64,000 bases of DNA from a phage: assembly GCA_012690745.1 (NCBI GenBank), contig GCA_012690745.1_4086.1; one strand, given 5' to 3'. The notes below the pieces were generated by a model. That model was given only the letters and a program-made list of their open reading frames with translations, had not been told where the DNA came from and made no database searches. The translations under genes and the position numbers were made by a program. Below, one piece after another: positions 1 through 17,497 of the stretch. Position 1 is the first letter of the stretch. Each line of letters starts with the position of its first letter.

Positions 1-548
1 GTTAGCGGTTTAACTCTAAGTTTATAAATGTGATGTTGCCACGTAACCGAGTATCCCTCAGATGTACGAAATGCATCTTGGACGACATAGAAGCGGTTTA
101 GACCTGTATCTTTACCCAATACATCAAAATCACGTAAATTTGGTAGTTCTATCACATCCCCTGGCATGATTTTTCTACCTAAACGCTGCATCATTGTATT
201 ATAATGGATTGTGATGTCCATAGTGTTGAAATTAAAGAACAATCCTGGGATTTTCAAGTCTGGAGTTGCTTCTTGAACTTGATAGACACAACTAAGTGTG
301 ATAGCTTCAAGGTTGTAGTTTCTGTTTGGTGTGTCACCAAAAATTAAATCGCCAATACTTGACACAACTGATCCTGAAGATGTATAATCACCTCCATAGG
401 ATAAGTCAGTGTTGTCAGCAACTTGTTTTGGACCGACATATGCATAAAGCCACATGTCAACTCCACCAATGTTGTATTGTTCAGCAATGGCAGAATCAAT
501 GAACTTGTAATCATTGGTTCTACCTTTTTTCCACATTCTATATGTCAT
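1..548 (-). CDS. Virion structural protein, N-terminal part only (gene runs past the window start); possibly a baseplate wedge gp8-like protein
   Basis: ATG at 548 on the minus strand, open frame to position 1. Hand translation begins MTYRMWKKG and contains IGGVDMWLYAYVGP, reminiscent of a T4 gp8 segment. Lies downstream of the gp6-like and giant structural genes. Weak by-eye similarity only. Confidence 0.4.
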   Translation of the reverse strand, partial: MTYRMWKKGRTNDYKFIDSAIAEQYNIGGVDMWLYAYVGPKQVADNTDLSYGGDYTSSGSVVSSIGDLIFGDTPNRNYNLEAITLSCVYQVQEATPDLKIPGLFFNFNTMDITIHYNTMMQRLGRKIMPGDVIELPNLRDFDVLGKDTGLNRFYVVQDAFRTSEGYSVTWQHHIYKLRVKPL

Positions 549-609
549 GATTGTCTCCAAAATAAATCGGGTATATCTTTATTTACCTTGTAGACAAACC
601 GTAAGAATG

Positions 610-618
610 TGATATAAT
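610..618 (+). promoter_or_regulatory. Extended -10 sigma70-like promoter (TGaTATAAT) upstream of the ClpA-like gene
   Basis: TGaTATAAT about 40 nt upstream of the ATG at 659; an AGGAG Shine-Dalgarno at about 649-653 precedes the ATG. Confidence 0.4.
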
Positions 619-658
619 GTTTATTAATTAGAGTGACGTGAATCACATAGGAGAATAC

Positions 659-2947
659 ATGAATCTTACTCAATTGTTCAAAAAAAGCGACGAACTGGCA
701 ACATCTCTAGGTCATACATTCTTGACTATTGACCACGTAAGTGCCACAGTACTGACTATTGATAGCATCAAGAACGTATTTGAAGATATGAACATTGATG
801 CAGACAAACTGCACAACCGCCTGATGAACTATCTTAAAAATACAACAGTTCCACATGCACCAAAAAGTGTTAAAGATGAAGACGCGAATCGAACTTCACT
901 TCTAGTGAATCGCGTTGTACATGAGCTTTCTAAAAAATCAGTTATTGAACAACTAAAAAGTGATGATTTTTCGATTGATGCATATTTTGTTCTATTCGAA
1001 TGTCTGTCTTTCCCTAACACAGCACTAGAAGCTGCGTTAAAAGAAGAAGGTGTTAGCTGTACTGAAGCTGCACGTGCATTACAGAAACACGTTGAGTCAC
1101 TTGATAAGGGTATCAACTTACAAAGTATTAATGACGAACCGATTGGAGATAAAAAAGTGGCCCAACAGCAGCAATCATCTAAACAAAAAGGTTTGGAAGA
1201 CTATACAACGAATCTAACTGCTCTTGCAAAAGAAGGCAAACTAGATCCTATGATTGGTCGCCAGAAAGAATTGTCTGCATTGATTGAGACTCTTGCTCGC
1301 AAAACCAAAAAGAATGCTATTCTCACTGGTGAAGCTGGTGTAGGTAAAACACAAATCATCGACGGACTTGCACAAGCTATTGCTGATGGTAACGTACCTG
1401 AACACCTGAAAGACGTTGAAATTCTTTCACTAAATGTTGGTGCATTGACTGCTGGTACTAAGTATCGTGGTGAATTTGAAGAACGCATCGACAATTTGCT
1501 AAAAGAACTAAAGAAACGTGAAAATACTATTGTTTTCATTGATGAAATTCATATTATGGTTGGGGCTGGTTCCGCAAGTAATGGTTCTATGGACATGAGC
1601 AATATGCTTAAGCCAGCACTTTCACGTGGTGAGATTCGTGTAATTGGTGCAACAACATATGATGAATATCGTAAAAATATCGAGAAAGATAGTGCATTAA
1701 CTCGTCGTTTTATGAAAATTGACGTAGTTGAGCCGACAATTGATGAAACTCGTGCAATTGTTAATGGTTTGAAACCAACGTATGAAAAATTCCATAATGT
1801 TGAGTTCACATCTGATGCAATGGATGCTGTAATTTCTCTCAGTGATAAATTCCTGAAGAATAAGCACTTCCCAGATAAAGCAATTGATCTAATGGATGCT
1901 GCTGCGGCTAAAGTTCGTTCACGTGACAACAATAGTAAGCTAATTACTGCCAATTTGATTCAAGAAGTTGTTGCTGGTATTGCCAATTTGGATATCAACG
2001 TGGTTGCATGTACTGAAAGTGATCGTATGCGTAATCTACCAGATGCACTACGCTCACGTGTATACGGTCAAGAGGAAGCTATTCAAAAATTAGTTGATAA
2101 CGTGATGGTAGCTCGTGCAGGACTGCGTGACAAATCTAGTGTTCAGGGTGCATTTATGTTTGTTGGACCATCTGGTACTGGTAAAACAGAAATTACCAAA
2201 GCATTAGCAGACGCAACTGGTGCGGAACTCATTCGCTTTGATATGTCAGAATTTTCTCAAGAACATACTGTTTCTAAACTAATTGGTTCACCTCCAGGTT
2301 ATGTTGGTCATGATTCTGGTAACGGTTTACTGTTGGATAAAATTGAGCAGTTCCCTAATGCAGTACTGTTACTTGATGAAATTGAAAAAGCAGATCGTAA
2401 AGTACTACTAACCTTCCTACAGGTTTTGGATGAAGGTCGTCTGACTGGTTCTCAAGGTAAAACTGTATATTTTAATAACGTAACTGTTATTATGACTACA
2501 AACCTTGGTGCGGCTGATTCAACAAAGCGTAGCATTGGTATGAGCGGTAGTGACACTGCACAGGACAAGGCAATTAAAGCATTCTTGCCACCAGAGTTTA
2601 TTAACCGTATTGATAGTATCGTTACGTTTAAAGACCTAAGCAGTGAAGCTATTGACAGCATCATTGATAAGTTCATGGGTGGTTTGAATGAACAAGTCAA
2701 AGACCGTAATGTTAAAGTTACATTGACAAAAGCTGCACGTGAATGGCTTGCGAAAAATGGGGTAAAAGTTGGTATGGGTGCACGTCCAATGAAACGTACC
2801 ATTGAACAAAACATTCGTGTACCACTAGCTAAAGAAATGTTGTGTGGTTCACTTGTGAATGGTGGTAACATTACATTTGATGTTATTGATGGTAAAATCG
2901 GTATTAAGCCGAAACGTACCAAAGCTGTAGATAAAGCACTAGTATAA
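659..2947 (+). CDS. clpA: ClpA-family AAA+ unfoldase with Clp N-domain and two AAA modules
   Basis: D1 Walker A GEAGVGKT and D2 Walker A GPSGTGKT, Walker [10 protein letters not shown], sensor/arginine-finger region [10 protein letters not shown], and an IGM tripeptide at the position of the ClpA IGL ClpP-docking loop. Spacing between D1 and D2 fits ClpA rather than ClpB (no long M-domain). The track ORF begins at GTG 638; the ATG at 659 has the better RBS. Confidence 0.85.
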
Positions 2948-2956
2948 AAAAAGAAA

Positions 2957-2983
2957 AGGAGAGCATTATGCTCTCCTTTTTTA
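2957..2983. terminator. Bidirectional rho-independent terminator between the convergent clpA-like and giant structural genes
   Basis: Nine-bp stem AGGAGAGCA / TGCTCTCCT with a 3-nt loop, flanked by an A-run upstream and a T-run downstream. Confidence 0.7.
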
Positions 2984-5900
2984 TTACTTAACTAATAATA
3001 TATTTTTAATATCATTACCACTAACTTGTAGACTATCAGTGTATACTGAAAGATCTATAGTGTAACTATTTTGTGTGTAACGTTTTAACATATCATAATT
3101 ACCTAAATTAATTCCATTGAAAGAATATGTGGTATTAAGTTTAAAATCATGTTCTGCACTATACATTACACCACGGAGTAAATTATTTGCATTTCTAACT
3201 TCAACTTTTTCATATCCAATCGATATAATATCATTCATGTTCGCGGCTGAACCGGATAAAACATTATTTCTAATACTATAAGGACTTATTGATTTAGGTT
3301 GAGAAACATAGGTTGTATTTTCTTCACTAATGGTTGTGATGTTAGTAACAGTACCACCAACAACACCGATATACATACCGTCAACCATTGGGAATCCATA
3401 AACCCATATCCCTTCATTATTTCTAAACGGTTGAATAACACTTGAATCATATTCGATAACGTTGATTTCTAAACTATCAGTCATTTTAGTTCTTGCCAAT
3501 TCACTAAGAACTCCCGCACCCGTAATTGGTAAGTTATAACCGTTATCGATAGTAATTCCATCAACATCAAATATTTCATTGGAGATTATCCAAACGTCAA
3601 CGTCATCTGGTGTTATTCCGTCATTGTACTTACCACCATTTAAAGTAATATCGTAGAAAACATCATAATTAATTACATCAATGGTGTAATTTCTATTTTG
3701 TTCATACAATTTAATACCATTCTTGACAAATTCAGGGTCAGCAAATGTTCTAACACGAACAATGTTCAATGCTAGAGGCTGTACTGGCTCATTTTGTTGT
3801 GCAAGAGTGATGTTATCATAACGGAGAACTGCACCAGTACTCTCATCAATCAATTCAATCGTTTCCTTACCTGTATTTCTTACAGTGAATAGGATCGGAG
3901 TTGTATTGTTTTTGATGTTAGATACACGCAAGATTGTTTCCCATGTGTGATTTTGATATCTCACAAAATCTTCACCATCAGGAGTGAAAATCATCACCTT
4001 ATCACCATCAGATAGGTCATTGTCAACTATTTCTGCTTCAGTTAAGCTATTAATAGATCTCACACGATAGAAATATTTTTCATCAAACTTCGATGTTGTT
4101 TTATTAATATCATTTTCAATCTTAGCATATGAAGGAATACTTACAATTGCTTCTGTATGTTTATATGGATTGATAATTGCCATACCTTCAGTTTGATATC
4201 TGCTGTTATCACGTAATTGTACAAGAGATACATTGTCAAACCCATATCCATCAACTGTAAATCTAATTTGTCCAACATCACGCCCAGAAGGGTTTATGTC
4301 AGATATATCCACAATATAAGGATCAACTTCATCATCTTTAACTTCCCATTTTATTGAAGAAGTTTGAGATTCCAATGCTAGGTTATCAAATGCATTCATA
4401 TCATTGAAGTACTTAGCTTCAGTAATACTATCAAGTATATATTGATAATCAGAATACATTGGATTATTTTGATCTAGTGGTAAATCATCAAGATTTATTT
4501 CAGCTAGTTCAACCATTTCACCATTTGTGATAAAATAATCTTCCATGAAATCATCAATACTTTGTTCATCAGGTATACTTTGATATACACCGTTAACATT
4601 TAAGTAAACATATTTTCGTGGAATCATTGTAATTGCATAGATATCAATTGGGGTCTTACTAAGAATCTCTTCAGCTTTTTCGTACTTATCAGTAGCGTCT
4701 TTGTCGAATAACCCTCTCATACCTGCTAATACGTGAATAGCATCAGTATAGAAACGGGTATCACCACCTACTTCATCATAACGATAAACATATACACCAT
4801 ACTCAACTTCAAGTTTAACTTTTACTTCATAGTCTGATGCGTCAGGATTTTTATCTTTAATTAATGAAATGTATTTTTGATACAATTCACTGCTTATTTC
4901 AAAATATCCATAGTTATAATCATTACTAGAAGAAAAGCCTAATGGAAGTCTAGTACTAGGATTGTCATTATAAGTAAGTCCACTAAATCCACATCCAACT
5001 TCATCGTGAATTTTCTCATCACTTATATCTTTATAAAGTTTCAAACGGTTTGCCAATGTGTTATACTGAACATATTGTCTAAGGTCAGTAAACATATCGT
5101 TATGCGTTGATTCTTTATAAACACGTTCCAATGTAGCAGTGAATTCATCAGTTGCTTCTAAATCTTCCGCATGGTCTTTATACCACTGGTTAACGCCATA
5201 TGCTGTTCCTAGTGTTACATCCAATTCTGGATAGTAGATTTGCATTTGATAAGCAATAAGAAGATCGAAAGTTTCTTCACTATATTCTGGGAAAGAATAT
5301 ATATAACGTTGTAATTCATAGTTACTAACAGCATCCTTTTCATTGGATTGATATTTGTTATTAACACTTACTAATTCATTTATGCTTGCCAAATCTTCAT
5401 TTGGTTTACACTGAATATTATCATAATGCATAATAATATCAATTTCTTGGAATCTTCTATTTGGTGTAACGAAATCACTTGGTAGTGAACCTACCTGTTC
5501 CCATTTTTGGGTAATTTCATTAAATTGAGCGTACTCATAATCCCAAATATCTTTTTCAGTTTTGATCCAAGAACCGTCAACGAAAATATATCCATTAGGA
5601 TCTAAATCATTACATAGACCTTTTATTAAATCATCATCAGATGTCTTTTGCTCTATTTGTGAACGAATTTTAGTTCTATAAGGTTTAACTTCTTCAAAAT
5701 ATTCAACAATTTGATTAATCAAATTATCGTTTGAATAGTTTTGAACTAATGATTGTTCCAAACCAACAATATAGATATATGATGTTTTAAATACCCAATC
5801 CACAACACTTTGTTCAACATGTACATATTTGACCATATCAAAAACAATTTCGCTTTGATGTAAATCGAAAGAATTTTTGAGTAAAGCTAGTGCTTTACGA

Positions 5901-8900
5901 ACGTTGATTTCACGATTGCTTAGTGAACCATTATCATTATGAACACTATAATCTGCGTAAAGCATATCATTGAGTTCAACTGTACTGTTTTCACGACCAA
6001 TCGCTTTCCAATAAATTGAATCGCGTGATTGTGATTTAATATACAATGTCCAAATGTTTTCACTATCGGTAACTCTGATAATATCGCCAACTTGGTAGTT
6101 TTTAGTATTAGCATCTTCTAAGCTTGACTCTTGAGTATAAGTCGTGTTACTATCATATCCAACATCATACCAATCAGCATATGACCAGTACTGAGTCATG
6201 TCTAATGAGGTTCCTAGTGATTCAACATAATCAGATTGTTTAATCATTTTATGTTGTCCCTCACCTTTGTTTTCTAACGTTATAGTAACAACACTACCCG
6301 CGTTTGCTGGACTATTCATTAACTGAATATATCCATTTTCGTCGAAGTGAATAAAATAAACAGCACTAGAAGTTAATGGATTTGGTAGATATCCACTAGT
6401 ACTTAAAATAACAGCGTCATTTTCTTTAAATTTATCACTTTCAACTGCAATAACTAATTCATTATTGTAAGACAACACACGGAAAGAAACTTCATTAGGG
6501 TTAACTTCAGTGGTTTTAACATTAAACACATCTTCCATAACAACACTATTAGTGGTTATGTTTTGTGACCTATAATAATTATTAGCACTTTCTACAAAGT
6601 TTCTACGAGCTTCTATAACATTTTGGAACCAAGTTTTGTTTGATCCTAAACCGTTATCAACATCTGGATATAATAAATTAATCACAGAACCTGATTCAGT
6701 TGTTTCTTGACCAATTAGTGAGTTCCACATTGAATCCCAAATTAGTGGGTTAAAGTTATAGCTGTCACCTTCTTTACATAGTTGATACTGGTCATGTTTA
6801 ACAACTTCAGTACTATCCATGTAATAAGAAACAGTTAAAATACTGGTATCATCATTCACTTTAAATTGCATATTACTAAGAATAAACGAGTTTTCATTTA
6901 TTGGAGCGAACCAAGGAATGTTTAGCTGTGTTGGATCTTTAATAATACGAGCAATGTCAGTACATGATTTCGTTCTGGTATGTAGTGGTGGTACATAAAT
7001 TGTATCACGTACCCAGAAATAGTATTTTGTTACATAACTATCAGTTGAACTATCATATTCCAAAAATGTACTATAATTATCTTCAAGTGCAGTTCCACTT
7101 GGTAGATACATAGTATTATTTTTGTTTTTCTTAGCAACATCTTTACAGTATTTGTCCCAGTTATATGGCTCAACTGGTGAACAAACCCACTCTAACACAT
7201 CAATGGTACTATGTGGTAACAAACGTCCCCAGTTGTAACGTTTGTATTCATTGGTTGCATCAATATCAACATTACCGTCTGCGTCATAAATTGCACGAGT
7301 ATAATCCAAATAAAATGCAGTGCTAGTGTTCCACCATACTTGACCAACTTTATCAGCACCCCAAGCCTGGATTAACTCTCCATTACTATTATACTGTGCA
7401 GGATCAACTGGTGAAGTATATGTTACGTTTTGCATAGCCGCACCTGGAATAACACCATTAATTGGGTCATAAACGTTTAGATATAGCTCAGTAATGTTAG
7501 TACGTTCATCATATGTCGTTGGACGATCAAATAAAGTACTTTGTGGTGCTTTAAAACTATATTTCTTGTCAATGTAAGCTTGACGATCATCAGTACTGGC
7601 AAAACGTGATACATAACGATACAAACGTGGACGTGTATCTGGATCAGTAAATTCAATATCAATAGAAGTGTCAAATGGAACTACCATAACTTTAGGATCA
7701 GAACCAGCAGTATAATATTGACTTTCTACTGTTAAAGTATCTGGCATAAAGTTAGTTTCATCAACAAAATAATAATAATCACCATCTTCAAGTGGTACAT
7801 TATCAGTTAAAGTTACTTTACAAAATTGTTCAGCATACACATCGGTATTTTCAATAGGTGTTATAGAAACCATTTGTACATTAGTATCAACCAATTCAAA
7901 AATGTTCCACAAACCATTACCGTCTTTAAACATCCACACAGATTCAGGATTTTCACCTTTACCATTAGTATAAGTTATGCGGTCATTATATGCAGTACTG
8001 AAATCTTTTGTTGTGTACGATACTTCATCCAATGTTACTGGACCAATATCTGGAAGTTGGATGTTTTCACTTCTTCCACTACGCATTGGGAATGAGAACT
8101 TACCATTTGGACGTGTAATCCAACGAGGATCTTTACCTTGCTCACCGAAGTATACAATATGATTACCATTACCATTTGAAGTTGCATTTACATCAAAAGA
8201 AACCATTTGAGGTTGTTGTTTAAATTGGTCATTGATTAGTTTAAATTGAAGGTTTTTCTTACCATCAATATTACCATATGTACCAATTTTAAATGCCCAT
8301 TCTTGTAATGCTTTATATTCATCAGTGTCATATGATTTAGAAACACGAAGTACACGTTCTAAAACTTGGTTAGTACCTTTATCGTGAATGAATCCTTTAT
8401 AGAAATCAACACGACTAACATCACTACTAATCATACGCTGTAGATAATCACGAGATTGATAACCAATCAAATGGTTTGACAACTCTTGTAATTGTACATC
8501 ACTTACTGGAGTTTCACTATCATAATAATGTTGGAAATCCGACACTAATTTTTCAAATGATGGTAGTGTTCCAGCTTCCAAGATAATAAATCCAGGAGCT
8601 TGTAGGCGACCAGTCCATGAACCAGTAATATATCCATACATTTTAATTAGTTCTTGAATAGAACCATATGTTGGCTGATAAATGTAATCACCAAAAATAG
8701 TTTTATCATCAAAAATAACAGCATGTTCATATGAACACAAACTTAAACGAATCAATGCAATGCGTTTATTAGATTCTAAAGTTCTAACAGTGAAGATATT
8801 TCCAATACGAGAAGTTTCAATTTCATATTGGCGAATACCTTGGTTATTATCATCAAGTAATGACCATACACCACCATTATTTTGCGTAATAGATTGTACT

Positions 8901-11900
8901 GAACCAAAGTCTGCCCCAAATTTAGCGTTTGCAGCACTTGGGGTACAAGAAATAAATTCACCAGTTACTAGAGAATTCTGACTCCAGATCACGAAATCTT
9001 TAGCAATAGTGTTCCAATCTTGTTGAGCACCACTATCATTTACATCTTCAAAAATCCAACCATGTTCTTTAAGATATTCACCATATCCACAAATAAAAGT
9101 ATAAACTTCTTGGTAACTATTGAAAACTTTACCATATTCAATTGAAGCTTCAGACTTCCATTCATTATAATGAACAACATTACGGTTTTCCAATTTAAGA
9201 GTTACTTTTCTACCATTTTTTACTGGAAGTTTATATTTAAATTTAGCACCAACTAGATCATATCCATCAATCTGATATGCACTACCATTCCAAGTAATTT
9301 TGATCGCACTCATTTGCTCATCACGGATATTATTAGAACGAACAAGACCAATGGTTTGGTTTTCTTGTGAAATAAGACCGAAAGATTTAGCATTGAATGT
9401 TAGCTGATCTGCTTTAGTAAATCCTCCAATTTTATGACCAACATTTATATAAGAAGAACGAACTACATCCCCATACTTGGTGGTAATATTTTTATTTTGA
9501 TACATCAAATGGTCACTTACAAACATTTGATAACCAATTGTTCTTGTGCTATTTTCACCATGAACTACTGTATTTTTATCAAAATTAATACGCTTACGTG
9601 TATCACCATAAAGGAATTGTGAACCATCAGTGAATACTTCTTTTAAGTTATCGTTGCGGGTATCCCAGAAATAGTTAGCAAATTGTGCTGGTTTAGCTTT
9701 ATACAAAAGCATCATTTGGTCATATGCAAACAATGTAGTGTTCATGTATGTAAATTCCATGTCACCCATATCACCATATGTCCAAGGTTCTGCTCTATGA
9801 TTTAAAGATCCAGACACTAAACCTAAAATTTCAGGTGCAATATATTCAACCACACAAATATCAATACCAGAAGATGTTTTATTTCCAGTTTTTGTAATTT
9901 TGAATGGCTGTACACCAAATCTTTTATATTTGTCATATTGACCACGACGATCACCAAATAAAATAGTTCCAGTACTGCTATCTCCAATAGTTCCGTCAAT
10001 ATCCCAAAGACCACTAGGAACTAAATCACCTTGCTCATTCATAACAAGTGCTTCATATACATATACAACATCACTATCACGTTCACCAACTTGAACAGCC
10101 GTTGGTTCGTATTCTTGGTTCCACCAAGTTGGACGTTGTGTAAAGCCAAACATTTCCCACGGATGGGTAGCTGGGCGATATGTACCATATTGGTCAGTGT
10201 AAATGGCACGCCATGAACCACGTGCAGGAATTTCAGTACTTTGACCATTAACTACATAATAAGTGCCAGTATAGTTCCAAGTTCTCCAATTGTTAGGATC
10301 ATAATCATGTGTACTATTACTGATACCATTAGTTGCGGTGAAGTTAATGTATCCACGTAGTAATAATGTTTGTTTCTCTTCAGCACTATATTCAGTTTTA
10401 GTGAAATATGGTGTAGGGAAAAGGTCATCACTATTCAATACTGGTACGTAATCAACATCTTTGAATTTATTATCAATACTATTAAAAATTCTATTTTCTA
10501 ATTCATATACAACATCATCCATTTTATCAACACCATTGATAACACGGTATGCTTTGGAAATAATACCAGTATGACTGATGTTATAACAGCTTGGTTTACT
10601 ACCAGCAGTGAGGAATGTCGCTTTTTCTGGTACATATGCTTGAAGAATACCTAAGAACTGTGGTGTTGGTGGTATAAATGCACGAATGAATCCAGAAGTA
10701 CTTCCAACATTATCATAATAGAATGGGAATGAACTATCACGTCCCATATTAATAGTAGTTAAAATTGCATCAACAATGTTTGCAGCACTATTTTGTAAAA
10801 AGTCTGATGGATTTTCATCATACATACGAAGCATTTGTGTATTAAATTTATTAATGAATCTAAAATATTCAGATTGCATAAACATAGTTGCTTCAAACAA
10901 ATCAATATCTTCATTTGCAGTATGTGCCATCAATGGAAGCATAGATGCTTCATTTTGGATAATTTTAGTACCTACGCCATTATTAACCAATCCTTTAGCC
11001 AAACGTTCTTCATAGTCATTGAAATCATCAGAAGAACCACGTGTAATGTTCTTTTGAATAATATCCTGAAAATGTAAAGTGTAGTCACCTTGGTTAATGT
11101 ATATAATATTAGAATTATATGGGTTATTTTGTAGGTTGATTGGAACTTCATATGCACCTAATTCTTTATTAGGAGTTACAGTACTGCTATAAGTTCTAAT
11201 TTGAATAACAGAATCTTCATCCAATTCTACAGTACTATCTAGAGTGATGCTTTGTACTTGACCTTTTGAAACATTTTTGGTATATTTGGACACATCAACA
11301 CCATCAACCACAACTTCAATAATATCAGAATCATTATCTAAAACTTTTTGTGCCAATTCGAATGTATGGTCATATTTTACAATCTGAACACCATCACCAG
11401 TAATTGGATGCCAATCTAGATAAGTTTCACGGTCAGCTTTATAGTACTGATATGTTCTATCAACTTCAATAACATATGCATACATACCATCAACTGGTTC
11501 TTTAAAAACTTCCATATCATAAACAGTACTGAATACACGATACATATCAGTACGTTGGACTTGTGGAGTTTGTTTTACAAATTGTTTAGAGTACTCTTCT
11601 GAACGAACCCAATCGGTTTGAAGATTCATTTCATTATTTTCATCAATAATGTTATAATAGTATAAACCATCAATTTCAACTTCTTTTCCAAGATGGTCAT
11701 AGGTATAACGTTGGGATTGTAAAAAGTTTTCATAAATGTAATAATTATAATCACCAAGTTCAATGTTATATCCATATACACTATCAGTTGCATAGTTGTA
11801 ATTTATTTTAAAACCAAACAACTCTGAACCTTTAAAGTTACTTGATGGATATGTAGTACTGTTGTCAAGTTTGATACCATTACGATCATAAAGTTGGAAT

Positions 11901-12955
11901 TTAGGGAATACGTTAACACTAGTTTTTGATTGTGCACGAACCCACAAAGATCCATTCCAGTACATAGAACTATTACCATACTCATTACCTTTAGTGATTA
12001 GAACAACATCACCATCTTGAGGTTCACCACTTGGGCGTGATTCGGTTTCTTCTTCTGGATCTAGTGCTAAACCATAAACACGAGTACCATCTTGCATTTT
12101 TTTCACATATACATTATAAATTCTATTGTTTTCACCATTGTTACCAATACTGGTGAATAGAATACGCATTCCATCTTGCGGAATAATACCATCAATACGT
12201 ATACCACTATTAATATCTTTTTGAACGATATCTTCAGGTTTAATAATATCAGAGAACAGATCAACAGTTCCACGGAATTTTGTACCGTAGTTAATTAGCT
12301 CAATATTTTTATTATATTCAATAATTGGTGCACGTGCACGAATAAAACGTGAATCTTGCATTAATTCTTCAGTTAATATTGAGCCATCTTCTAATGTTTC
12401 ACCTAAAGTATACCAAAAGTTTTGTAGTGACCATGTATTACCATTAAGTGCTCCACGTTCCATTACAATGTAATCAGGTGAAGTAATATTATAAGAGTTT
12501 TTAGTATCCCAAAGATATGAGCTAAAATTGTTCATTTTATTTGGGTTAATAGCTGGAGTCCATGCATAAAACTTACCGTTGAACAAACGGCTTTCATTAT
12601 CGGTTAGTGCTCCATAATGATTCATGTATCCAACTAGATCATCATAAAATTGAATTGAACGAATTGTCGAATCATCATTTTTTGAGACGTAAGCAGTGGA
12701 CAACTGATAAAGTTGACGTGCTACAGTACTTTCATGTAAGAAGATATTACCAGCAGCGGCAGGAGAACCCATATCACCAATATAGCCGTCAACTAATTCG
12801 TTTTCAGCCGGATTAAACCATTGTTGAATAACATCATCACTGACTTTTTGAATATCTTCTAAGCCTTGCATCCACTCAGGCAATCTTTTAATAAAAAGCT
12901 TCTTCTGTACTGCTTCAGCCATCTGTGTAGGTTGAAACTTAAAATTATTAGTCAT
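2984..12955 (-). CDS. Giant virion structural protein (~3,320 aa), probably baseplate-wedge/tail-fiber (gp7 position)
   Basis: Uninterrupted 10 kb ORF immediately downstream of the gp6-like gene. The internal ATG at 12955 is preceded by GGAG with a 7-nt spacer; the track ORF start is 12985. Function inferred from position only. Confidence 0.6.
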   Translation of the reverse strand: MTNNFKFQPTQMAEAVQKKLFIKRLPEWMQGLEDIQKVSDDVIQQWFNPAENELVDGYIGDMGSPAAAGNIFLHESTVARQLYQLSTAYVSKNDDSTIRSIQFYDDLVGYMNHYGALTDNESRLFNGKFYAWTPAINPNKMNNFSSYLWDTKNSYNITSPDYIVMERGALNGNTWSLQNFWYTLGETLEDGSILTEELMQDSRFIRARAPIIEYNKNIELINYGTKFRGTVDLFSDIIKPEDIVQKDINSGIRIDGIIPQDGMRILFTSIGNNGENNRIYNVYVKKMQDGTRVYGLALDPEEETESRPSGEPQDGDVVLITKGNEYGNSSMYWNGSLWVRAQSKTSVNVFPKFQLYDRNGIKLDNSTTYPSSNFKGSELFGFKINYNYATDSVYGYNIELGDYNYYIYENFLQSQRYTYDHLGKEVEIDGLYYYNIIDENNEMNLQTDWVRSEEYSKQFVKQTPQVQRTDMYRVFSTVYDMEVFKEPVDGMYAYVIEVDRTYQYYKADRETYLDWHPITGDGVQIVKYDHTFELAQKVLDNDSDIIEVVVDGVDVSKYTKNVSKGQVQSITLDSTVELDEDSVIQIRTYSSTVTPNKELGAYEVPINLQNNPYNSNIIYINQGDYTLHFQDIIQKNITRGSSDDFNDYEERLAKGLVNNGVGTKIIQNEASMLPLMAHTANEDIDLFEATMFMQSEYFRFINKFNTQMLRMYDENPSDFLQNSAANIVDAILTTINMGRDSSFPFYYDNVGSTSGFIRAFIPPTPQFLGILQAYVPEKATFLTAGSKPSCYNISHTGIISKAYRVINGVDKMDDVVYELENRIFNSIDNKFKDVDYVPVLNSDDLFPTPYFTKTEYSAEEKQTLLLRGYINFTATNGISNSTHDYDPNNWRTWNYTGTYYVVNGQSTEIPARGSWRAIYTDQYGTYRPATHPWEMFGFTQRPTWWNQEYEPTAVQVGERDSDVVYVYEALVMNEQGDLVPSGLWDIDGTIGDSSTGTILFGDRRGQYDKYKRFGVQPFKITKTGNKTSSGIDICVVEYIAPEILGLVSGSLNHRAEPWTYGDMGDMEFTYMNTTLFAYDQMMLLYKAKPAQFANYFWDTRNDNLKEVFTDGSQFLYGDTRKRINFDKNTVVHGENSTRTIGYQMFVSDHLMYQNKNITTKYGDVVRSSYINVGHKIGGFTKADQLTFNAKSFGLISQENQTIGLVRSNNIRDEQMSAIKITWNGSAYQIDGYDLVGAKFKYKLPVKNGRKVTLKLENRNVVHYNEWKSEASIEYGKVFNSYQEVYTFICGYGEYLKEHGWIFEDVNDSGAQQDWNTIAKDFVIWSQNSLVTGEFISCTPSAANAKFGADFGSVQSITQNNGGVWSLLDDNNQGIRQYEIETSRIGNIFTVRTLESNKRIALIRLSLCSYEHAVIFDDKTIFGDYIYQPTYGSIQELIKMYGYITGSWTGRLQAPGFIILEAGTLPSFEKLVSDFQHYYDSETPVSDVQLQELSNHLIGYQSRDYLQRMISSDVSRVDFYKGFIHDKGTNQVLERVLRVSKSYDTDEYKALQEWAFKIGTYGNIDGKKNLQFKLINDQFKQQPQMVSFDVNATSNGNGNHIVYFGEQGKDPRWITRPNGKFSFPMRSGRSENIQLPDIGPVTLDEVSYTTKDFSTAYNDRITYTNGKGENPESVWMFKDGNGLWNIFELVDTNVQMVSITPIENTDVYAEQFCKVTLTDNVPLEDGDYYYFVDETNFMPDTLTVESQYYTAGSDPKVMVVPFDTSIDIEFTDPDTRPRLYRYVSRFASTDDRQAYIDKKYSFKAPQSTLFDRPTTYDERTNITELYLNVYDPINGVIPGAAMQNVTYTSPVDPAQYNSNGELIQAWGADKVGQVWWNTSTAFYLDYTRAIYDADGNVDIDATNEYKRYNWGRLLPHSTIDVLEWVCSPVEPYNWDKYCKDVAKKNKNNTMYLPSGTALEDNYSTFLEYDSSTDSYVTKYYFWVRDTIYVPPLHTRTKSCTDIARIIKDPTQLNIPWFAPINENSFILSNMQFKVNDDTSILTVSYYMDSTEVVKHDQYQLCKEGDSYNFNPLIWDSMWNSLIGQETTESGSVINLLYPDVDNGLGSNKTWFQNVIEARRNFVESANNYYRSQNITTNSVVMEDVFNVKTTEVNPNEVSFRVLSYNNELVIAVESDKFKENDAVILSTSGYLPNPLTSSAVYFIHFDENGYIQLMNSPANAGSVVTITLENKGEGQHKMIKQSDYVESLGTSLDMTQYWSYADWYDVGYDSNTTYTQESSLEDANTKNYQVGDIIRVTDSENIWTLYIKSQSRDSIYWKAIGRENSTVELNDMLYADYSVHNDNGSLSNREINVRKALALLKNSFDLHQSEIVFDMVKYVHVEQSVVDWVFKTSYIYIVGLEQSLVQNYSNDNLINQIVEYFEEVKPYRTKIRSQIEQKTSDDDLIKGLCNDLDPNGYIFVDGSWIKTEKDIWDYEYAQFNEITQKWEQVGSLPSDFVTPNRRFQEIDIIMHYDNIQCKPNEDLASINELVSVNNKYQSNEKDAVSNYELQRYIYSFPEYSEETFDLLIAYQMQIYYPELDVTLGTAYGVNQWYKDHAEDLEATDEFTATLERVYKESTHNDMFTDLRQYVQYNTLANRLKLYKDISDEKIHDEVGCGFSGLTYNDNPSTRLPLGFSSSNDYNYGYFEISSELYQKYISLIKDKNPDASDYEVKVKLEVEYGVYVYRYDEVGGDTRFYTDAIHVLAGMRGLFDKDATDKYEKAEEILSKTPIDIYAITMIPRKYVYLNVNGVYQSIPDEQSIDDFMEDYFITNGEMVELAEINLDDLPLDQNNPMYSDYQYILDSITEAKYFNDMNAFDNLALESQTSSIKWEVKDDEVDPYIVDISDINPSGRDVGQIRFTVDGYGFDNVSLVQLRDNSRYQTEGMAIINPYKHTEAIVSIPSYAKIENDINKTTSKFDEKYFYRVRSINSLTEAEIVDNDLSDGDKVMIFTPDGEDFVRYQNHTWETILRVSNIKNNTTPILFTVRNTGKETIELIDESTGAVLRYDNITLAQQNEPVQPLALNIVRVRTFADPEFVKNGIKLYEQNRNYTIDVINYDVFYDITLNGGKYNDGITPDDVDVWIISNEIFDVDGITIDNGYNLPITGAGVLSELARTKMTDSLEINVIEYDSSVIQPFRNNEGIWVYGFPMVDGMYIGVVGGTVTNITTISEENTTYVSQPKSISPYSIRNNVLSGSAANMNDIISIGYEKVEVRNANNLLRGVMYSAEHDFKLNTTYSFNGINLGNYDMLKRYTQNSYTIDLSVYTDSLQVSGNDIKNILLVK

Positions 12956-13003
12956 TTTTGGACTCCATATAATTCGTTCATTCATTTGATTTATTTATGA
13001 TAT

Positions 13004-13027
13004 AAAAAAGGCGTTCCGAAGAACGCC
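13004..13027 (-). terminator. Rho-independent terminator (minus strand) after the gp6-like gene
   Basis: Stem GGCGTTC / GAACGCC with a CGAA loop; on the minus strand it is followed by a U-run (plus-strand A-run 13004-13009). Confidence 0.55.
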
Positions 13028-13034
13028 CGTTATA

Positions 13035-16000
13035 TTAAGAACCGATATTAATATTACTTTTAGCTAGTGAGTTAACAATTTGAACATTTTCAACAGATGC
13101 AGTACTCAAAAATATTTGGTCTGAACGTGAAGGGATTTCAAATAGAGAGCCAAATTTTGAATTTGGATTTTGTGCAACTATAACAATGGTACTAATATGT
13201 CTACCTAACTGTGAGTGTATGTAAGTACACAAATCAGTATAATAGAAACTTTCACCGAAATCCCAGTTGTCAACATTGAAGTATTCATTAGTTAATGCTA
13301 TAACATTTTGACGAATTTCATCGTCACTCATTGTGCTGTTTGGTAATTTCACTACTTTAAAATCAGCTTTGTAATCTTCAGCAGCACTGTTGCCAAATAA
13401 AGGTAAGTACTCAGCACTATGCCAAATAATACTATCACTAATGACTATTTTTTGTTCAACATCTTTGAACATATCTTTCAATTCAACCGATGTAGGTGGT
13501 TTAGGAATACTACCAACAGCATTATTTTTCAACCAAACGTCAACTTCAGTTTTATATGAATTGGTTAATACATACATATCAATTAAGTTTGTTCTACTAG
13601 GATCAATGCGATTGTCGTCAGGTGCATAGTGTTTCCAATGGAAGTCTATACTAGTACGTGCATTAGTTTTAACAGTGTACTGTGAAGTAACATCTTTGTA
13701 TCCATAATAATCTAGCTTCTGATTCTCGTCAGCATTAGTTCCCATGTTATTAATTGCACGATAAAAAGCCAATTCAGGACTAACAGTGCCAGTATCATCG
13801 GAATAAGTTAAATTACTAATTAGCTGTCCTAAACGATCATTGTTATTACCAACTGTTTGTTCAATAAAATAATATTTACCATCATAGTTAAAACCAACTA
13901 AAAATCCAGAACCTTTACTATATAATCCACTCAATGTGGTTGAACGAATTGCGTTATTTCTAACAAATTCAGTTCTTTTATATGCATTCGGCTCTGCCAA
14001 GGCTTGTTCCATTGTATAAGACCACGATGAATCAAGAAGTGTGAAGGTATCATTTGGTAACGACAGTACTGATATAGTGAAATCACTATTTTCCTGAAAT
14101 ACCAAAATACCACCATATTTTAATGCATCGGTTCCAGTCCAAGTAGGAACAATTTCTTTAAATTGGTTTGGTTCCAATGGTATACCATTACTATCTACTT
14201 TCCTAGATGTAACAATAACACGAGAACCATCTAGATAGCCATTCTCTTGTTGAATTGTGTCATAAATTTGAAAATCTATATTACTTGTCAATCCTGAATT
14301 ACTACTACTAGTAGTGTTAGATGATAAAATTTCAATCTTATCACTTTGAACTGTACCAGTACTAATATCAGTAATTTTTTTAGATGATACAAAGTAAAAT
14401 CTTACTTTTTCTCCACCCACAAAAATATATTCAATACCGTTAGCATCAAATTCCCAAGTTTCTGCTGTATATTTTACATTAATTATAATTAAAACTTCAT
14501 TGCCATTATATACAATAGTATCATCATTGGTACTTACTTCAATAGGAACCCATGATGTCGTTTCTTTGTCATGTACAATAACAAAATCAGTTTTTTTATC
14601 TAGCATAGCAGAAATTGCTTGAACTTCAACCGAGTTAAATCTAGTTCTATATGGTAAAATGTACTCTATGGCTTGCATTCCACTTGGAACCGATGTACTC
14701 AGTACATAAAATCCATTATCCAATACACTAACTACACTAGCCCATATAGTAGTTCCAGAATTAGAAAATTTAATTAGAGTACCAACCTGATATGAACCAT
14801 AAACTGTACCAGATGAACCCAAAATTCTACCATATGTGTTAGTTGTATAATTTGAATTGTATACCGGAGTCCATGCTTGTTGTATTTCAATACCAATTGT
14901 ATTTGATGGAAACGCTTGGTAACGTTGTATTACCGCATTTTCACCAATCAATGGTTGAATATTGTCAATAACAATACTAGCATTTGTTTTTGTAGTTGGT
15001 AGTAATAATGACCTATTAAATTGTGTGTTTTCTTGATATAATGCACCATCATCACTAAAAACATCGGTATTTTGATACTTACCAGTAGGATCATTAATAT
15101 CAATAAATCTTGATTGTCCACTATAAATTCTATTAATAGCTTTAGATTTAAGTACAGTATTGCCTAAACTAAGTGGTGCAATATTATAATCTTCACCATT
15201 GACAAAACGGTTTTGTGTATAGTACATTTGTGGTGCACGTGCTTTAATCTGCTCAATAGTCTCTGCACTTTGTGCACGGTCGGACTCATATTGTAATGAA
15301 AAACGTATATCCAATGTACTAGATTCATAACTTGACTGTGTTTTTGTACGATATGTATATTTTACGCTTTTGTTTTGAATTTCAGAAGTTTTAATGTTAT
15401 ATGTTTTACCATTACTAACACGATACCATACGCGGAACGTCCCACGGGGAACAACACCACTTCTTGAGTCTGGATACTTAATTGTTATTTGATCTTTATC
15501 ACGAGTAGTAACAGCAAAAATTGTTTTTAATTGACGATTAACAGTGTTATATGCAATACTTTCCATTGATGGAACTTTTGTCCATTTGGTACGAACAATA
15601 CCATCTTCATTTATTTCTTGAACCCATACATCAGTTTCGTTGATATTATCAACGTTAATATCTTGTATACGGTTCTCTTCACGGATAGCATATTGATAAT
15701 CTTGATATGTCAATGTACCTTGTACGAAATATACAAAAAAACCAGTATTTGGTGAGCTAAATCCATTACCATCATTTTGATAAACAATATATTTTTGCTC
15801 TTGTGGTTCTGGATGTCGTTCTTCAACACCAACAGACGTAATATCAGGATTCACTACTTCAAATGTCATAGATTCACCATTGACAGTTGCAATAAATGGA
15901 ATACTGGGTGCTGTCATTGGGATGGTGTTCATTCGATATAGTTGACGGGAGACACCATTAACATCAATACGCTTGACTGGATTACCAAATTGGTTAGTAC

Positions 16001-16496
16001 TGACAAATGAACTGTTCATTACTAGAATGAAGTTTTCATACCAGTTAGCATCCATCGGGTCATTCCAACGAATGATTTTATCTTTTAATGATTCATTAAA
16101 ACTATTACGAACATCTTGGTTTGTTTTAATTTCGGTTAATTTAGCAACTGCACGACCTGGATATGAGCGGCGTGGTGAGTAAGAAATCATTTTAGCTAGT
16201 TTTAGTACTGATGCACGACGAGTTGCAGTATCTAAAAAGTTTTCACGTGTGTTCAAATCCATACGAAATGCCAAGTTCTGCCCTAGCATAGAAATCGTAT
16301 CTAAAATAAAAATAAACTGGTCGTTTTCGATCCAGTCGTTGAATGAGTCTGGGTAAGTTGCACGTAGATAATCAATCATACTCTGACGGATAGTATCGAA
16401 GTCATAAGCTGTAAGATTGATTTTATAAAAACTTTCATATACTTGAGTCCAATCCTCACCAGCGTATAAATTTGATTGCCTTTTTTGTTGTGACAT
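13035..16496 (-). CDS. Baseplate wedge protein, gp6/gpJ-like (1153 aa)
   Basis: N-terminal region (ENFLDTATRRASVLKLAKMISYSP) resembles the T4 gp6 N-terminus (ESFMRTANLRSSVVQAAQDNGYLP as recalled). Conserved order gp25-like then gp6-like. Confidence 0.65.
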   Translation of the reverse strand: MSQQKRQSNLYAGEDWTQVYESFYKINLTAYDFDTIRQSMIDYLRATYPDSFNDWIENDQFIFILDTISMLGQNLAFRMDLNTRENFLDTATRRASVLKLAKMISYSPRRSYPGRAVAKLTEIKTNQDVRNSFNESLKDKIIRWNDPMDANWYENFILVMNSSFVSTNQFGNPVKRIDVNGVSRQLYRMNTIPMTAPSIPFIATVNGESMTFEVVNPDITSVGVEERHPEPQEQKYIVYQNDGNGFSSPNTGFFVYFVQGTLTYQDYQYAIREENRIQDINVDNINETDVWVQEINEDGIVRTKWTKVPSMESIAYNTVNRQLKTIFAVTTRDKDQITIKYPDSRSGVVPRGTFRVWYRVSNGKTYNIKTSEIQNKSVKYTYRTKTQSSYESSTLDIRFSLQYESDRAQSAETIEQIKARAPQMYYTQNRFVNGEDYNIAPLSLGNTVLKSKAINRIYSGQSRFIDINDPTGKYQNTDVFSDDGALYQENTQFNRSLLLPTTKTNASIVIDNIQPLIGENAVIQRYQAFPSNTIGIEIQQAWTPVYNSNYTTNTYGRILGSSGTVYGSYQVGTLIKFSNSGTTIWASVVSVLDNGFYVLSTSVPSGMQAIEYILPYRTRFNSVEVQAISAMLDKKTDFVIVHDKETTSWVPIEVSTNDDTIVYNGNEVLIIINVKYTAETWEFDANGIEYIFVGGEKVRFYFVSSKKITDISTGTVQSDKIEILSSNTTSSSNSGLTSNIDFQIYDTIQQENGYLDGSRVIVTSRKVDSNGIPLEPNQFKEIVPTWTGTDALKYGGILVFQENSDFTISVLSLPNDTFTLLDSSWSYTMEQALAEPNAYKRTEFVRNNAIRSTTLSGLYSKGSGFLVGFNYDGKYYFIEQTVGNNNDRLGQLISNLTYSDDTGTVSPELAFYRAINNMGTNADENQKLDYYGYKDVTSQYTVKTNARTSIDFHWKHYAPDDNRIDPSRTNLIDMYVLTNSYKTEVDVWLKNNAVGSIPKPPTSVELKDMFKDVEQKIVISDSIIWHSAEYLPLFGNSAAEDYKADFKVVKLPNSTMSDDEIRQNVIALTNEYFNVDNWDFGESFYYTDLCTYIHSQLGRHISTIVIVAQNPNSKFGSLFEIPSRSDQIFLSTASVENVQIVNSLAKSNINIGS

Positions 16497-16597: not shown

Positions 16598-16993
16598 TTA
16601 TAAAGACGATACTGAATATGTTGCCATTCTGTTATTACTTCTTGCATCGAATACAATAGTAAGTTCTTCTAATGTATCCAATACTACGTACTGTAATACA
16701 ATATTCATTTGGTATCCATATTCTATTCTTGAAATTTGCAATTTCTTAAGATTTAAGCGTGGATCTAAGCTAATTATTCTACGGGCATCTGCTTCCAAAA
16801 GGTTGATAGTATTATAACCTTCCAATTCAAACAGCAAATCCCATGCAATAAAACCATAGTCAGCATCAAATGCTCTTTCGCCTTTTTTTGTATTGAAATG
16901 ATTCATTAAATCTTGGCGAACCAATTCACTATCATACAATGTTTCAGTTCTACCCACTACTGGGGTAGAAAAACCTTTAAAAACAACTGCCAT
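16598..16993 (-). CDS. Baseplate wedge protein gp25/gpW-like (131 aa)
   Basis: Size, and position between the lysozyme and gp6-like genes. ERAFDADYG-type motif typical of the gp25/GPW family. Confidence 0.6.
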   Translation of the reverse strand: MAVVFKGFSTPVVGRTETLYDSELVRQDLMNHFNTKKGERAFDADYGFIAWDLLFELEGYNTINLLEADARRIISLDPRLNLKKLQISRIEYGYQMNIVLQYVVLDTLEELTIVFDARSNNRMATYSVSSL

Positions 16994-17008: not shown

Positions 17009-17497
17009 TTATACGGATTCAACAATACGTGCCATCTTTTCCGCTCTTGAAGTGGTTTGTTTATACCATGTACTATCACGCAATTCCTTACCAGCAGTTT
17101 TATAATCAGCCTTACCTAATGCGGTCATTGCTTTTTTAAATTTTAAAACTTTGGTTTTTCCCATCTGGAATACCATCAACCATAATACACGTTGAACCTG
17201 TACAGGTGCGGTCATACCAAATTGTTCATAAATTGATTTTGCATCATTGTACGCAGTTTGAGCATCTTTAAGAAGAAGTTGGTCAGCTTGTGCTTCTGTT
17301 AAACCATTCTTGAAATTTTCACCAGGTAAAACTAGGTGACCATAGCCAATAGTATCAAGACCTAAGCTGTCTTTATATACCCAAAACTTATCATTTTTAA
17401 AATAACCAAGTTTTTTCTGATAAGCAATAGTTCCTTCAAATTCTTTAATTTCCTTAAAAAATTGCTCATCTGTATTTTTAATTTCCCATTTACTCAT
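17009..17497 (-). CDS. T4-type lysozyme (glycoside hydrolase family 24), stand-alone
   Basis: EFEG...KDSLGLDTIGYGHL matches the T4 lysozyme catalytic Glu/Asp/Thr arrangement. Strongly similar to the C-terminal domain of the upstream spike protein. Confidence 0.8.
   Translation of the reverse strand: MSKWEIKNTDEQFFKEIKEFEGTIAYQKKLGYFKNDKFWVYKDSLGLDTIGYGHLVLPGENFKNGLTEAQADQLLLKDAQTAYNDAKSIYEQFGMTAPVQVQRVLWLMVFQMGKTKVLKFKKAMTALGKADYKTAGKELRDSTWYKQTTSRAEKMARIVESV

Follow-up and report, generated by a model that had tools for sequence, protein, structure and literature searches.

A giant virion protein in the gp7 slot of a jumbo coliphage baseplate module: a candidate single-chain peripheral scaffold

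Introduction

It is the baseplate that sets the moment at which a contractile tail fires. To our knowledge, every solved myophage baseplate has a (gp6)2-gp7 core ringed by several smaller peripheral proteins. In contractile injection systems, the third chain of this wedge heterotrimer is T4 gp7 or its counterparts P2 gpI, Pam3 gp23 and T6SS TssG. In a 64,000-nucleotide stretch of phage DNA, which we call the window, the gene that comes after the gp6-like wedge gene is a single ORF of 10 kb. What kind of protein does it encode, and what might a chain of this size do at the gp7 position? An earlier note on this DNA had proposed a chimera that fuses wedge, tail fibre and receptor-binding or depolymerase functions, with host range set by its C-terminal half. 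The gene and the presence of its product in virions are already public record, and the literature that we found on the function or structure of the protein consists only of listings as a "structural/hypothetical protein" or as the "largest ORF". What is new here is the family-wide anatomy of the protein and the assignment of its position only.

Results

The minus strand of the window carries, at positions 2984-12985, an uninterrupted ORF with 3333 codons ahead of two TAA stops, one at 2984-2986 and the other just downstream. The single unbroken 10-kb frame of the earlier note, which gave no strand, is thus confirmed, as is its place after a 1153-aa gp6-like gene in the direction of transcription; the T4 sizes given there were also right (gp6, 660 aa; gp7, 1032 aa; NC_000866). 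The longest possible ORF begins at 12985, 30 nt upstream of Met11. The true start is probably Met11 (position 12955): a GGAG stands 9 nt ahead of this codon, both the PHROG profile and gene callers begin the protein there, and the annotation of phAPEC6 gp245 begins at the same Met. The resulting 3323-aa product is identical to a database homologue (P0001). The gene and its surroundings are as follows.

2987..12955, minus strand: giant virion protein gene, Met11 to last sense codon (3323 aa, 381.87 kDa, pI 4.6)
13035..16496, minus strand: gp6-like baseplate wedge gene (1153 aa, 131 kDa; PHROG 10646/219, "baseplate wedge subunit"; product found in virions by mass spectrometry)
16598..16993, minus strand: gp25-like sheath-initiator/wedge gene (131 aa; PF04965, E = 1.2e-8; phrog_43)
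13009..13028, minus strand: hairpin and T-run terminator between the gp6-like and giant genes
2954..2980, minus strand: strong terminator hairpin with a 12-bp stem, directly 3' of the giant gene

Could such a long frame have arisen by an assembly or annotation error that joined several genes, the outcome that the earlier note named as fatal to its reading? In about 20 Escherichia/Salmonella phage genomes, each sequenced independently, the 10-kb ORF is unbroken, with a nucleotide identity of 98.7-100%; a nucleotide search covered at least 80% of it in 35 records, the frame is intact in at least 35 independent phage genomes, and colinear homologues of 3310-3346 aa reach down to 44% identity. The ORF is split into several "hypothetical proteins" in only two of 58 records (SD-1_S14 and SD-2_S15), in the pattern that sequencing errors would give, and we found no support for an artefact beyond these. 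With the same unbroken frame in dozens of isolates and in metagenomes, at about 25-100% identity, and with peptides of the product detected, an artefact has a negligible probability, and we rejected it on the conservation of the reading frame.

The protein matches the PHROG 10938 profile with 5793 bits, residues 11-3330 aligning to profile positions 1-3324 of 3324. This "virion structural protein" family, filed under "head and packaging", is its own family; entries 100% identical to our protein exist, and the members include phAPEC6 gp245, 121Q gp582, PBECO4, RaK2 ORF070w, CBB_236, GAP32 and PA5oct gp128. The gene is an already catalogued one, and the phages that carry it are PBECO4/121Q-type jumbo coliphages. 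In the records and literature that we searched, the family has neither a functional assignment nor annotated domains nor a structure. A protein search gave 198 homologues, and 1,402 cluster representatives (50% identity clusters), mostly of 2,200-6,281 aa, open with the N-terminal block described below, which begins at residues 1-36 among the matches listed. Short proteins of 263-370 aa with this block were rejected as stand-alone forms: they lie on contigs of 1-3 kb and are most likely fragments.

Published mass spectrometry found gp245 (381.88 kDa) in phAPEC6 virions with 17 unique peptides, and CBB_236 in CBB virions with 21 peptides. These products are identical or homologous to the protein of the window. 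The earlier note had regarded absence from virions as evidence against its reading; the product is present in both, and the ORF does encode a genuine giant virion protein. In the phAPEC6 data, its peptides per residue are about 3.6-fold below those of the gp6-like protein, a semi-quantitative figure that is compatible with fewer copies of the giant protein. In the 25 A map of the phAPEC6 tail, nothing is assigned to it.

We compared gene order in six loci: the window, phAPEC6, RaK2 and three distant relatives (L003, L006 and L007, 25-28% identity). All share the order hub-lysozyme, gp25, gp6-like, giant, a gp5-like hub/lysozyme gene thus also lying upstream of the giant gene. In 6/6 loci the giant gene is the next one in line behind the gp25-like and gp6-like wedge genes and so occupies the gp7/gpI slot, and in two of the three distant relatives the end of the gp6-like gene overlaps the start of the giant gene. 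PA5oct gp128 also adjoins the wedge genes of its phage, gp129/130. No other gp7/gpI-like gene was seen in the baseplate module. Of the "gp7/fibre position" in the earlier note, the gp7 slot stands, and the fibre role is not supported, the fibres being encoded separately (see Discussion). The gp6-like protein is the presumed assembly partner of the giant protein.

In this phage, the terminator at 13009..13028 splits the gp6-like from the giant gene, so co-transcription is not required. After it comes CATAAATA, which has one mismatch to the T4 late-promoter motif TATAAATA. Since this motif is not enriched across the window, a promoter upstream of the giant gene is only suggestive. The hairpin at 2954..2980 is common to the giant gene and to a convergent Clp-like ATPase gene.

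Alignment of the family divides the chain into conserved blocks, common across the family over residues ~11-2470, and a variable end. Residues are numbered on the long ORF.

12476..12955, minus strand: N-terminal block, ~residues 11-170, common to 30/30 diverse members aligned (alignment A5)
5576..12475, minus strand: conserved non-repetitive scaffold, ~residues 171-2470, from the block map (relatives at 25-30% identity)
5486..5785, minus strand: most conserved 100-residue stretch by invariant columns, residues 2401-2500, with EVKPYRTKIR
2987..5485, minus strand: C-terminal module, ~residues 2501-3333, clade-specific and faster-evolving; a helical region, then beta-rich globular domains

The N-terminal block carries the motifs LP..Q(T), GYIG, R..YQL, FY.DL, RLF, YSW.PPI and NY..YYW, and we propose that it is an anchor into the wedge core. 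The scaffold has a mean identity of 60-75% within the close clade, with hot spots of lineage-specific insertion near residues 160, 760 and above all 1740-1810. The C-terminal ~830 aa evolve ~1.5-2 times faster; this module is missing from distant family members, which have unrelated tails instead, some with CBM_5_12. Thus only the last quarter (from about residue 2500 onward), and not the whole C-terminal half, is faster-evolving and clade-specific. CBM_5_12, FG-GAP and LamG domains were confined to other lineages, in which they occupy insertions or tails; their presence in distant members makes surface exposure and sugar binding probable for parts of the family. Self-comparison of the giant protein revealed no internal repeats.

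Two AlphaFold models, outside of which lie residues 1061-2139, are of mixed alpha/beta, globular structure, and mean pLDDT is 80 for residues 11-1060. The first ~130 residues of the N-terminal block have low confidence in the monomer (pLDDT 28-70), and about half of residues 2401-2500 falls within a helical, low-confidence region. The two most conserved stretches are therefore those that AlphaFold cannot place in the monomer, as would be expected of assembly interfaces, and on this modelling residues 2401-2500 are a probable inter-subunit interface.

Homology searches returned the family itself. Scans of Pfam, NCBIfam and PHROGs at permissive thresholds (whole protein, thirds, and the N-terminal block of 30 members) gave only its own PHROG, and searches of PDB chains (whole protein, 28-sequence full-length profile, N-terminal block) gave nothing below E = 0.27. 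The gp7 Pfam families PF21427, PF21428 and PF21456, and Tail_P2_I, do not match the giant protein, nor do Mu gp48 and TssG, which were compared through Pfam scans only. By hhalign, the probability against T4 gp7 was at most 0.6% with the single sequence (a low-power comparison) and at most 0.4% against a 23-sequence gp7 profile; against P2 gpI it was 0.1%, and T4 gp5, 6, 8, 9, 10, 11, 12, 53 and wac gave nothing, the single-sequence version again being of low power. This power was gauged with a control, in which the gp6-like protein scored only 2.4% against T4 gp6. Neither AlphaFold model matches the solved wedge proteins structurally, for a comparison in which the N-terminal block has low confidence and residues 1061-2139 lie outside. 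The term "gp7-like" is thus a positional inference: it denotes position only, and neither sequence nor profile places the protein in the gp7 family. The giant protein is one non-repetitive chain with many globular domains, and outside its own family we detected no relative.

Discussion

We favour, with a probability of roughly 0.6, the reading that the ORF encodes a low-copy structural baseplate protein, a single-chain peripheral scaffold that functionally takes the gp7 position and docks separately encoded fibres. For the jumbo myophages of the Rak2-like / PA5oct / Atu_ph07 superclade, this "giant wedge-position protein" can be regarded as a hallmark.

The chimera of wedge, fibre and receptor-binding or depolymerase functions put forward in the earlier note has several observations in its favour: the fast, clade-specific C-terminal ~830 aa, the sugar-binding type domains in insertions and tails of distant members, and recurrent weak Foldseek matches to the N-terminal domains by which fibres and tailspikes are attached (CBA120 TSP4 residues 1-250, T7 gp17 N-terminus, Dpo31). 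These matches speak equally for the scaffold that we favour. They are below significance (E 0.028, ~3% of the chain), and in the case of CBA120 TSP4, whose residues 1-250 are T4 gp10-like domains, and of T7 gp17, no catalytic or shaft part is matched. The domain search that the note had suggested, for depolymerase, lectin and similar modules, gave no Pfam, NCBIfam or PDB domain at permissive thresholds, and structure prediction gave no beta-helix, fibre shaft or lectin fold in either model (residues 1061-2139 being outside). No coiled coil was seen in the protein. A depolymerase was rejected on the lack of a beta-helix. The C-terminal region diverges smoothly, at near-constant length of the protein, without mosaic breakpoints or exchange tracking the host, and phages isolated on Salmonella and on E. 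coli have giant proteins 99.7-100% identical. Against the proposed host-range role of the C-terminal half, RaK2 and K64-1 giant proteins differ at 15 of 3326 residues (99.5% identical), three of the 15 in the last quarter, whereas their fibre proteins, which carry the capsule specificities, are 26-100% identical (PMC10253068). Fibres are indeed encoded separately, as gp248/256/314 in phAPEC6 and as gp526-534 and gp098 in RaK2 (PMC10253068), and relatives have Gp34_trimer, Peptidase_S74 and Collar genes downstream. The giant protein thus shows no sign of a fibre, depolymerase or main host-range role, and we consider the chimera improbable, a little more so than a virion protein outside the baseplate.

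Such a protein could be an internal or ejected head protein, of which N4 vRNAP and P1 DarB are examples, a tape measure, or the building block of the "hairy" fibres that cover tail and capsid in phAPEC6 and CBB. PHROG 10938 is filed with head proteins, the size is comparable to that of other giant virion-packaged proteins, and the hair-like fibres that phAPEC6 and CBB bear are unassigned. The head label is probably a generic "virion structural protein" tag, and the invariant place of the gene beside the gp25-like and gp6-like genes of the baseplate module, with stop/start overlap in some lineages, speaks against all of these identities. An ejected enzyme is further disfavoured, since Pfam/NCBIfam scans found no polymerase, helicase, methylase or other enzymatic motif. 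A tape measure, at 0.15 nm per residue, would translate 3323 aa into a tail of ~500 nm, against 94-123 nm observed, and the chain is not all-helical in the AlphaFold models; it was rejected on length and fold. As for the hairs, the family also occurs in PA5oct and in RaK2, for which the literature examined describes no such hairs, a globular non-repetitive chain is a poor fit for hairs of 119 nm, and the low peptide yield speaks against a many-copy fibre. Taken as a group, these identities are unlikely.

How does the single-chain scaffold that we favour compare with known systems? As in P2, where the order is spike, W, J, I, the gene stands immediately behind a gp25-like and a gp6-like gene, and like the gp7 class the product is a virion protein, apparently of low abundance, in which a conserved N-terminal segment is followed by lineage-specific peripheral domains. 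It differs from that class in showing no detectable similarity to it in sequence, in profile or, over the modelled residues, in fold, the core-bundle/trifurcation fold of the class being putative here, and it is 3.2 times as long as T4 gp7 and ~19 times as long as P2 gpI. Pam3 gp23 supplies fibre-docking sites (PMC9942802), and here too the fibres are separately encoded and would need a docking platform. AlgoCIS Alg11 is an enlarged wedge protein that forms a spike cage with carbohydrate-binding modules (PMC8894135). Both Alg11 and the phiKZ/Goslar periphery combine a conserved wedge core with large lineage-specific insertions, and some members of the giant family have carbohydrate-binding modules, but there is no homology to either; moreover, the phiKZ/Goslar periphery is made of many separate proteins, against one 380-kDa chain here. 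Unlike the situation in T4, this chain would have to replace several peripheral proteins.

In the model that we infer, the conserved N-terminal ~150 residues would join the gp6-like chains inside the wedge core, a role likened by analogy to that of T4 gp7, P2 gpI and Pam3 gp23. The next ~2,300 conserved residues would make up, in one chain, most of the periphery of the baseplate; six copies would add ~2.3 MDa in place of the T4 peripheral proteins gp7-gp11. No homologues of gp7-gp11 have been reported for this phage group, and the table of T4 homologues in the CBB paper has gp6, gp25 and gp53 as the only wedge proteins. On this scaffold, the separately encoded fibres would find sites to dock. 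An exposed distal surface is probably made up of the C-terminal ~830 residues together with the insertion hot spots, where other lineages have carbohydrate-binding modules; this surface may touch the cell envelope or lineage-specific fibres as a secondary contact. The protein itself would then be neither a fibre nor an enzyme, nor the primary determinant of host specificity. A bolder version is tentative, and we give it slightly less than even odds: that one non-repetitive 380-kDa chain, almost entirely of folds without solved relatives, accounts for essentially all of the peripheral baseplate in this large jumbo-phage superclade, its N-terminal ~150 residues standing in for the gp7/gpI wedge-core element as a previously unrecognised analogue unrelated in sequence (or as a homologue that has diverged extremely) and its insertion sites letting lineages plug in carbohydrate-binding modules.

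If the single-chain periphery is real, it would show that baseplates can grow larger by another route than the multi-protein peripheries of T4, phiKZ and phage 812, and more than 3,000 residues would be structurally uncharted domains. Metagenomes are rich in this superclade, with 1,402 clusters at 50% identity, and among its members are candidates for therapy against E. coli, Klebsiella, Pseudomonas and Erwinia. Phage engineers should seek host range in the separate fibre genes, and not in the giant ORF.

Identity and start of the giant ORF

The 10-kb stretch is 100% identical in Escherichia phages ECO103 4-12-1 and EC22.5-2, and 98.7-99.9% identical in PBECO4, 121Q, phAPEC6, G17, Sharanji, slurp01 and others (genus Asteriusvirus). 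Since at least 80% of it is covered in 35 records, an assembly artefact, which the earlier note had proposed checking for, is excluded. Mass spectrometry of phAPEC6 virions identified the same protein, gp245 (381.88 kDa, 17 unique peptides, 7.6% coverage; PMC7247149), and in CBB virions it detected CBB_236 (21 peptides; PMC5259590), which is 58% identical to the window's giant protein. The prediction of a giant virion protein is thereby confirmed, the protein being real and apparently of low abundance. The "largest ORF" has also served to orient genomes (PMC5259590). As the gene, its size and its virion presence were already public, the observation is not new; no assigned function was found in the literature on phages carrying the protein.

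The gene is one open frame of 3333 codons (window 2984-12985, minus strand), ending in TAA TAA. GGAG stands 9 nt 5' of the second in-frame ATG (Met11, window 12955). Met11 is the start chosen by gene callers, by the PHROG profile and in the phAPEC6 annotation, so the product is most likely 3323 aa (381.87 kDa); a length of 3,333 aa is correct for the frame and should read 3,323 aa for the protein. The first ATG of the long ORF (12956-12985, minus strand) is probably unused, the Shine-Dalgarno belonging to Met11.

Baseplate module and gene order

The following features lie upstream of the giant gene:

13028-13009, minus: hairpin and T-run terminator, in the intergenic region upstream of the giant gene
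13035-16496, minus: gp6-like wedge gene, 1153 aa (PHROG 10646/219)
gp25-like gene (PF04965)
17009-17497, minus: lysozyme paralogue, 162 aa
17534-20197, minus: gp5-like hub/lysozyme gene, 887 aa (PF04717, PF00959)
20211-22460, minus: virion protein gene, 749 aa, matching its own PHROG only
22472-22786, minus: gp53-type wedge subunit, 104 aa
22786-23517, minus: virion protein gene, 243 aa, matching its own PHROG only
23649-24488, plus: divergent gene, corresponding to the phAPEC6 late sigma factor

In transcription order, the 749-aa virion protein, hub/lysozyme, 162-aa lysozyme, gp25-like and gp6-like genes precede the giant gene. The order hub-lysozyme, gp25, gp6-like, giant recurs in phAPEC6, RaK2 and three distant loci with giant homologues at 25-28% identity; the gp6-like protein in it is ~1,120-1,150 aa long and carries PF27647/DUF8360 (precomputed annotation), and its stop overlaps the giant start in two of the three distant loci. 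This order matches the P2-type V-W-J-I, the giant gene taking the place of I (gp7), and none of the remaining genes of the window's module (the gp53-type gene and two uncharacterised virion protein genes) is gp7/gpI-like. The giant gene thus belongs to the baseplate module and occupies its gp7/gpI position. The three distant loci have separate genes for fibre-type proteins (Gp34_trimer, Peptidase_S74, Collar) 3' of it.

The terminator at 13028-13009 is followed, upstream of the giant gene, by CATAAATA; speculatively, it could reduce giant expression relative to gp6-like expression. A terminator with a 12-bp stem lies 3' of the giant stop. It is common to the giant gene and a convergent gene for a ClpA/ClpB-like ATPase (window 638-2947, plus strand; 769 aa; two AAA+ modules: AAA_2, ClpB_D2-small, Clp_N). 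This pairing also occurs in phAPEC6 (gp246c), RaK2 (ORF069) and K64-1, and the two genes do not adjoin in the three distant loci; a chaperone role in folding the 382-kDa protein is conceivable.

The gp6-like protein is also enlarged (1153 aa, 131 kDa, versus 660 aa in T4), and the general gp6 PHROG matches its residues ~26-125 only. Its metagenomic relatives have PF27647 (DUF8360), a family missing from the Pfam copy used. Standing alone, the 162-aa lysozyme ORF is paralogous to the hub's C-terminal lysozyme domain and matches positions 727-885 of the hub PHROG profile; phAPEC6 mass spectrometry lists the hub gp241 and does not list gp242, the homologue of this ORF. Between these two genes, TATAAATA at 17514-17521 resembles a late promoter.

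Family anatomy

A word-indexed search returned 198 homologues. Those down to 44% identity are colinear and near-constant in length (3310-3346 aa), those at 36-40% have ~75% of the length in common, and those at 24-31% (2,779-5,638 aa, contigs up to 512 kb) have common blocks over query residues ~11-2470, at about 12-150, 158-470, 545-752, 755-952, 1055-1260, 1260-1460, 1465-1730, 1800-2140 and 2245-2460 in profile coordinates. Insertions concentrate at three hot spots:

after ~150: 80-550 aa
near 755
~1730-1800 (query ~1740-1810): up to about 1,700 aa

Everything past ~2500 is restricted to closer clades, and distant members bear unrelated tails. Their Pfam domains, where present (CBM_5_12, FG-GAP_2, Laminin_G_3, Gly_rich), fall within insertions or the variable tail, as mapped in two members. 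Among annotated phages, RaK2, K64-1, GAP32, CBB, Serratia BF, the Eneladusvirus phages of Erwinia, Yersinia fHe-Yen9-03/04, a Vibrio phage, PA5oct, Atu_ph07, Phosso, SCTP-2 and XacN1 have a homologue.

The N-terminal 175-residue block (alignment A5), used in an exhaustive HMMER search, matched 1,402 cluster representatives at 50% identity (699 below 1e-30). Among the 150 matches listed, it is at the very N-terminus of proteins mostly of 2,200-6,281 aa; the short matches examined come from 1-3 kb contigs and probably represent fragments. Members reach 5,638-6,281 aa through insertions at query ~1740-1810 (the distant locus L006, 8001-24917; metagenomic P0094, P0149 and others), which can hold FG-GAP repeats; Laminin_G_3 and CBM_5_12 also occur in such members. 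The largest would rank among the largest phage structural proteins.

Searches for relatives and predicted structure

Pfam gave no match with the whole protein, with its thirds (E up to 5) or with the N-terminal block taken from 30 members (E up to 10), and its three gp7 domain families are borne by every gp7 homologue retrieved. NCBIfam gave no match, nor did PDB sequences with the protein, full-length profile or N-terminal profile. With hhalign, probabilities were 0.6% or less against T4 gp7, 0.4% or less against a 23-member gp7 family profile, 0.1% against P2 gpI, and 1.6% or less against T4 gp5, 6, 8, 9, 10, 11, 12, 53 and wac. The single-sequence test is weak: in the control, the gp6-like protein and T4 gp6, which are truly related according to PHROG, aligned in the correct position yet reached no more than 2.4%. 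Sequence does not place the giant protein in the gp7/gpI/TssG family, and we do not claim membership. Self-comparison (BLAST and segment-wise hhalign) found no internal repeats. The protein is a non-repetitive chain of several domains, and no relative was detected beyond its own family.

An AlphaFold2 model of residues 11-1060, built with 22 diverse relatives, has a mean pLDDT of 80. The universal block coincides exactly with its first ~130 residues, where pLDDT is 28-70 and short helices give way to strands; after it come beta-rich and helical domains in a row, predicted with confidence. The fold match ranked first in both comparisons, a weak one, aligned ~100 residues to CBA120 TSP4 residues 1-250, described as its anchor and T4 gp10-like domains (PMC10253068); other fibre or tailspike N-terminal domains (T7 gp17 N-terminus, Dpo31) followed, also weak. 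The model of residues 2140-3333 (mean pLDDT 65) starts with two small beta domains. A helical stretch of low confidence comes next (~2361-2464), running into the beginning of the most conserved 100-residue window (2401-2500); beyond it lie a helical region at ~2530-2860 and then, at ~2875-3105 and ~3170-3333, beta-rich domains. The model shows no obvious parallel beta-helix, shaft of coiled-coil type or lectin fold.

Host range and the role of the giant protein

Mean identity to the query within the close clade is 0.6-0.75 as far as residue 2500 and 0.3-0.5 beyond. Because each relative steps at ~2500 without breakpoints or replaced modules, faster evolution belongs to the final quarter rather than to the C-terminal half, under vertical inheritance. 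Between RaK2 and K64-1, 15 of 3326 positions of the giant protein differ, including 3 past residue 2500, and the fibre proteins of the two phages are 26-100% identical; those of K64-1 are depolymerases for ten capsule types, and in RaK2 gp531 is the primary receptor-binding protein and gp098 a secondary one (PMC10253068). The giant proteins of Salmonella-isolated phages are 99.7-100% identical to those of E. coli isolates. These comparisons argue that the giant protein is not the principal specificity determinant; it may be an accessory surface contact. The earlier note held the C-terminal half likely to carry host-range determinants; the near-identity of the RaK2 and K64-1 proteins speaks against a principal determinant there. 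The fusion of wedge, fibre and receptor-binding or depolymerase functions proposed with it fails on architecture as well as on these comparisons, and we regard it as improbable. It is also unlikely that the protein lies elsewhere than in the baseplate, as an internal protein, tape measure or tail hairs: synteny, fold type, length arithmetic and phyletic distribution speak against this.

We infer, with a probability of roughly 0.6, that the giant protein is a baseplate protein functioning at the gp7 position. Intertwined wedge-core elements are typically conserved yet unpredictable in the monomer, and the universal N-terminal block would enter the wedge core together with the gp6-like chains. 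A rim would consist of the conserved body of 2,300 residues (six giant copies amount to 2.3 MDa, versus 1.6 MDa for twelve gp6-like chains); it would dock the separately encoded fibres and stand in for T4 gp7-gp11, of which no homologues are listed in the CBB comparison (PMC5259590). The variable insertions and C-terminal module would face outward. The protein is best seen as the wedge-position baseplate protein of contractile tails in a strongly divergent form.

New here are the layout common to the family (a universal block at the N-terminus, a conserved core, hot spots for insertion and a clade-specific tail), the comparisons with every known family and solved fold, all negative, the constant gp25 / gp6-like / giant arrangement, and the evidence against a fibre and host-range reading. 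The protein will be no surprise to jumbo-phage specialists; with so much of its fold space uncharted it makes a good target for cryo-EM, and it is a hallmark of a very large jumbo-myophage superclade.
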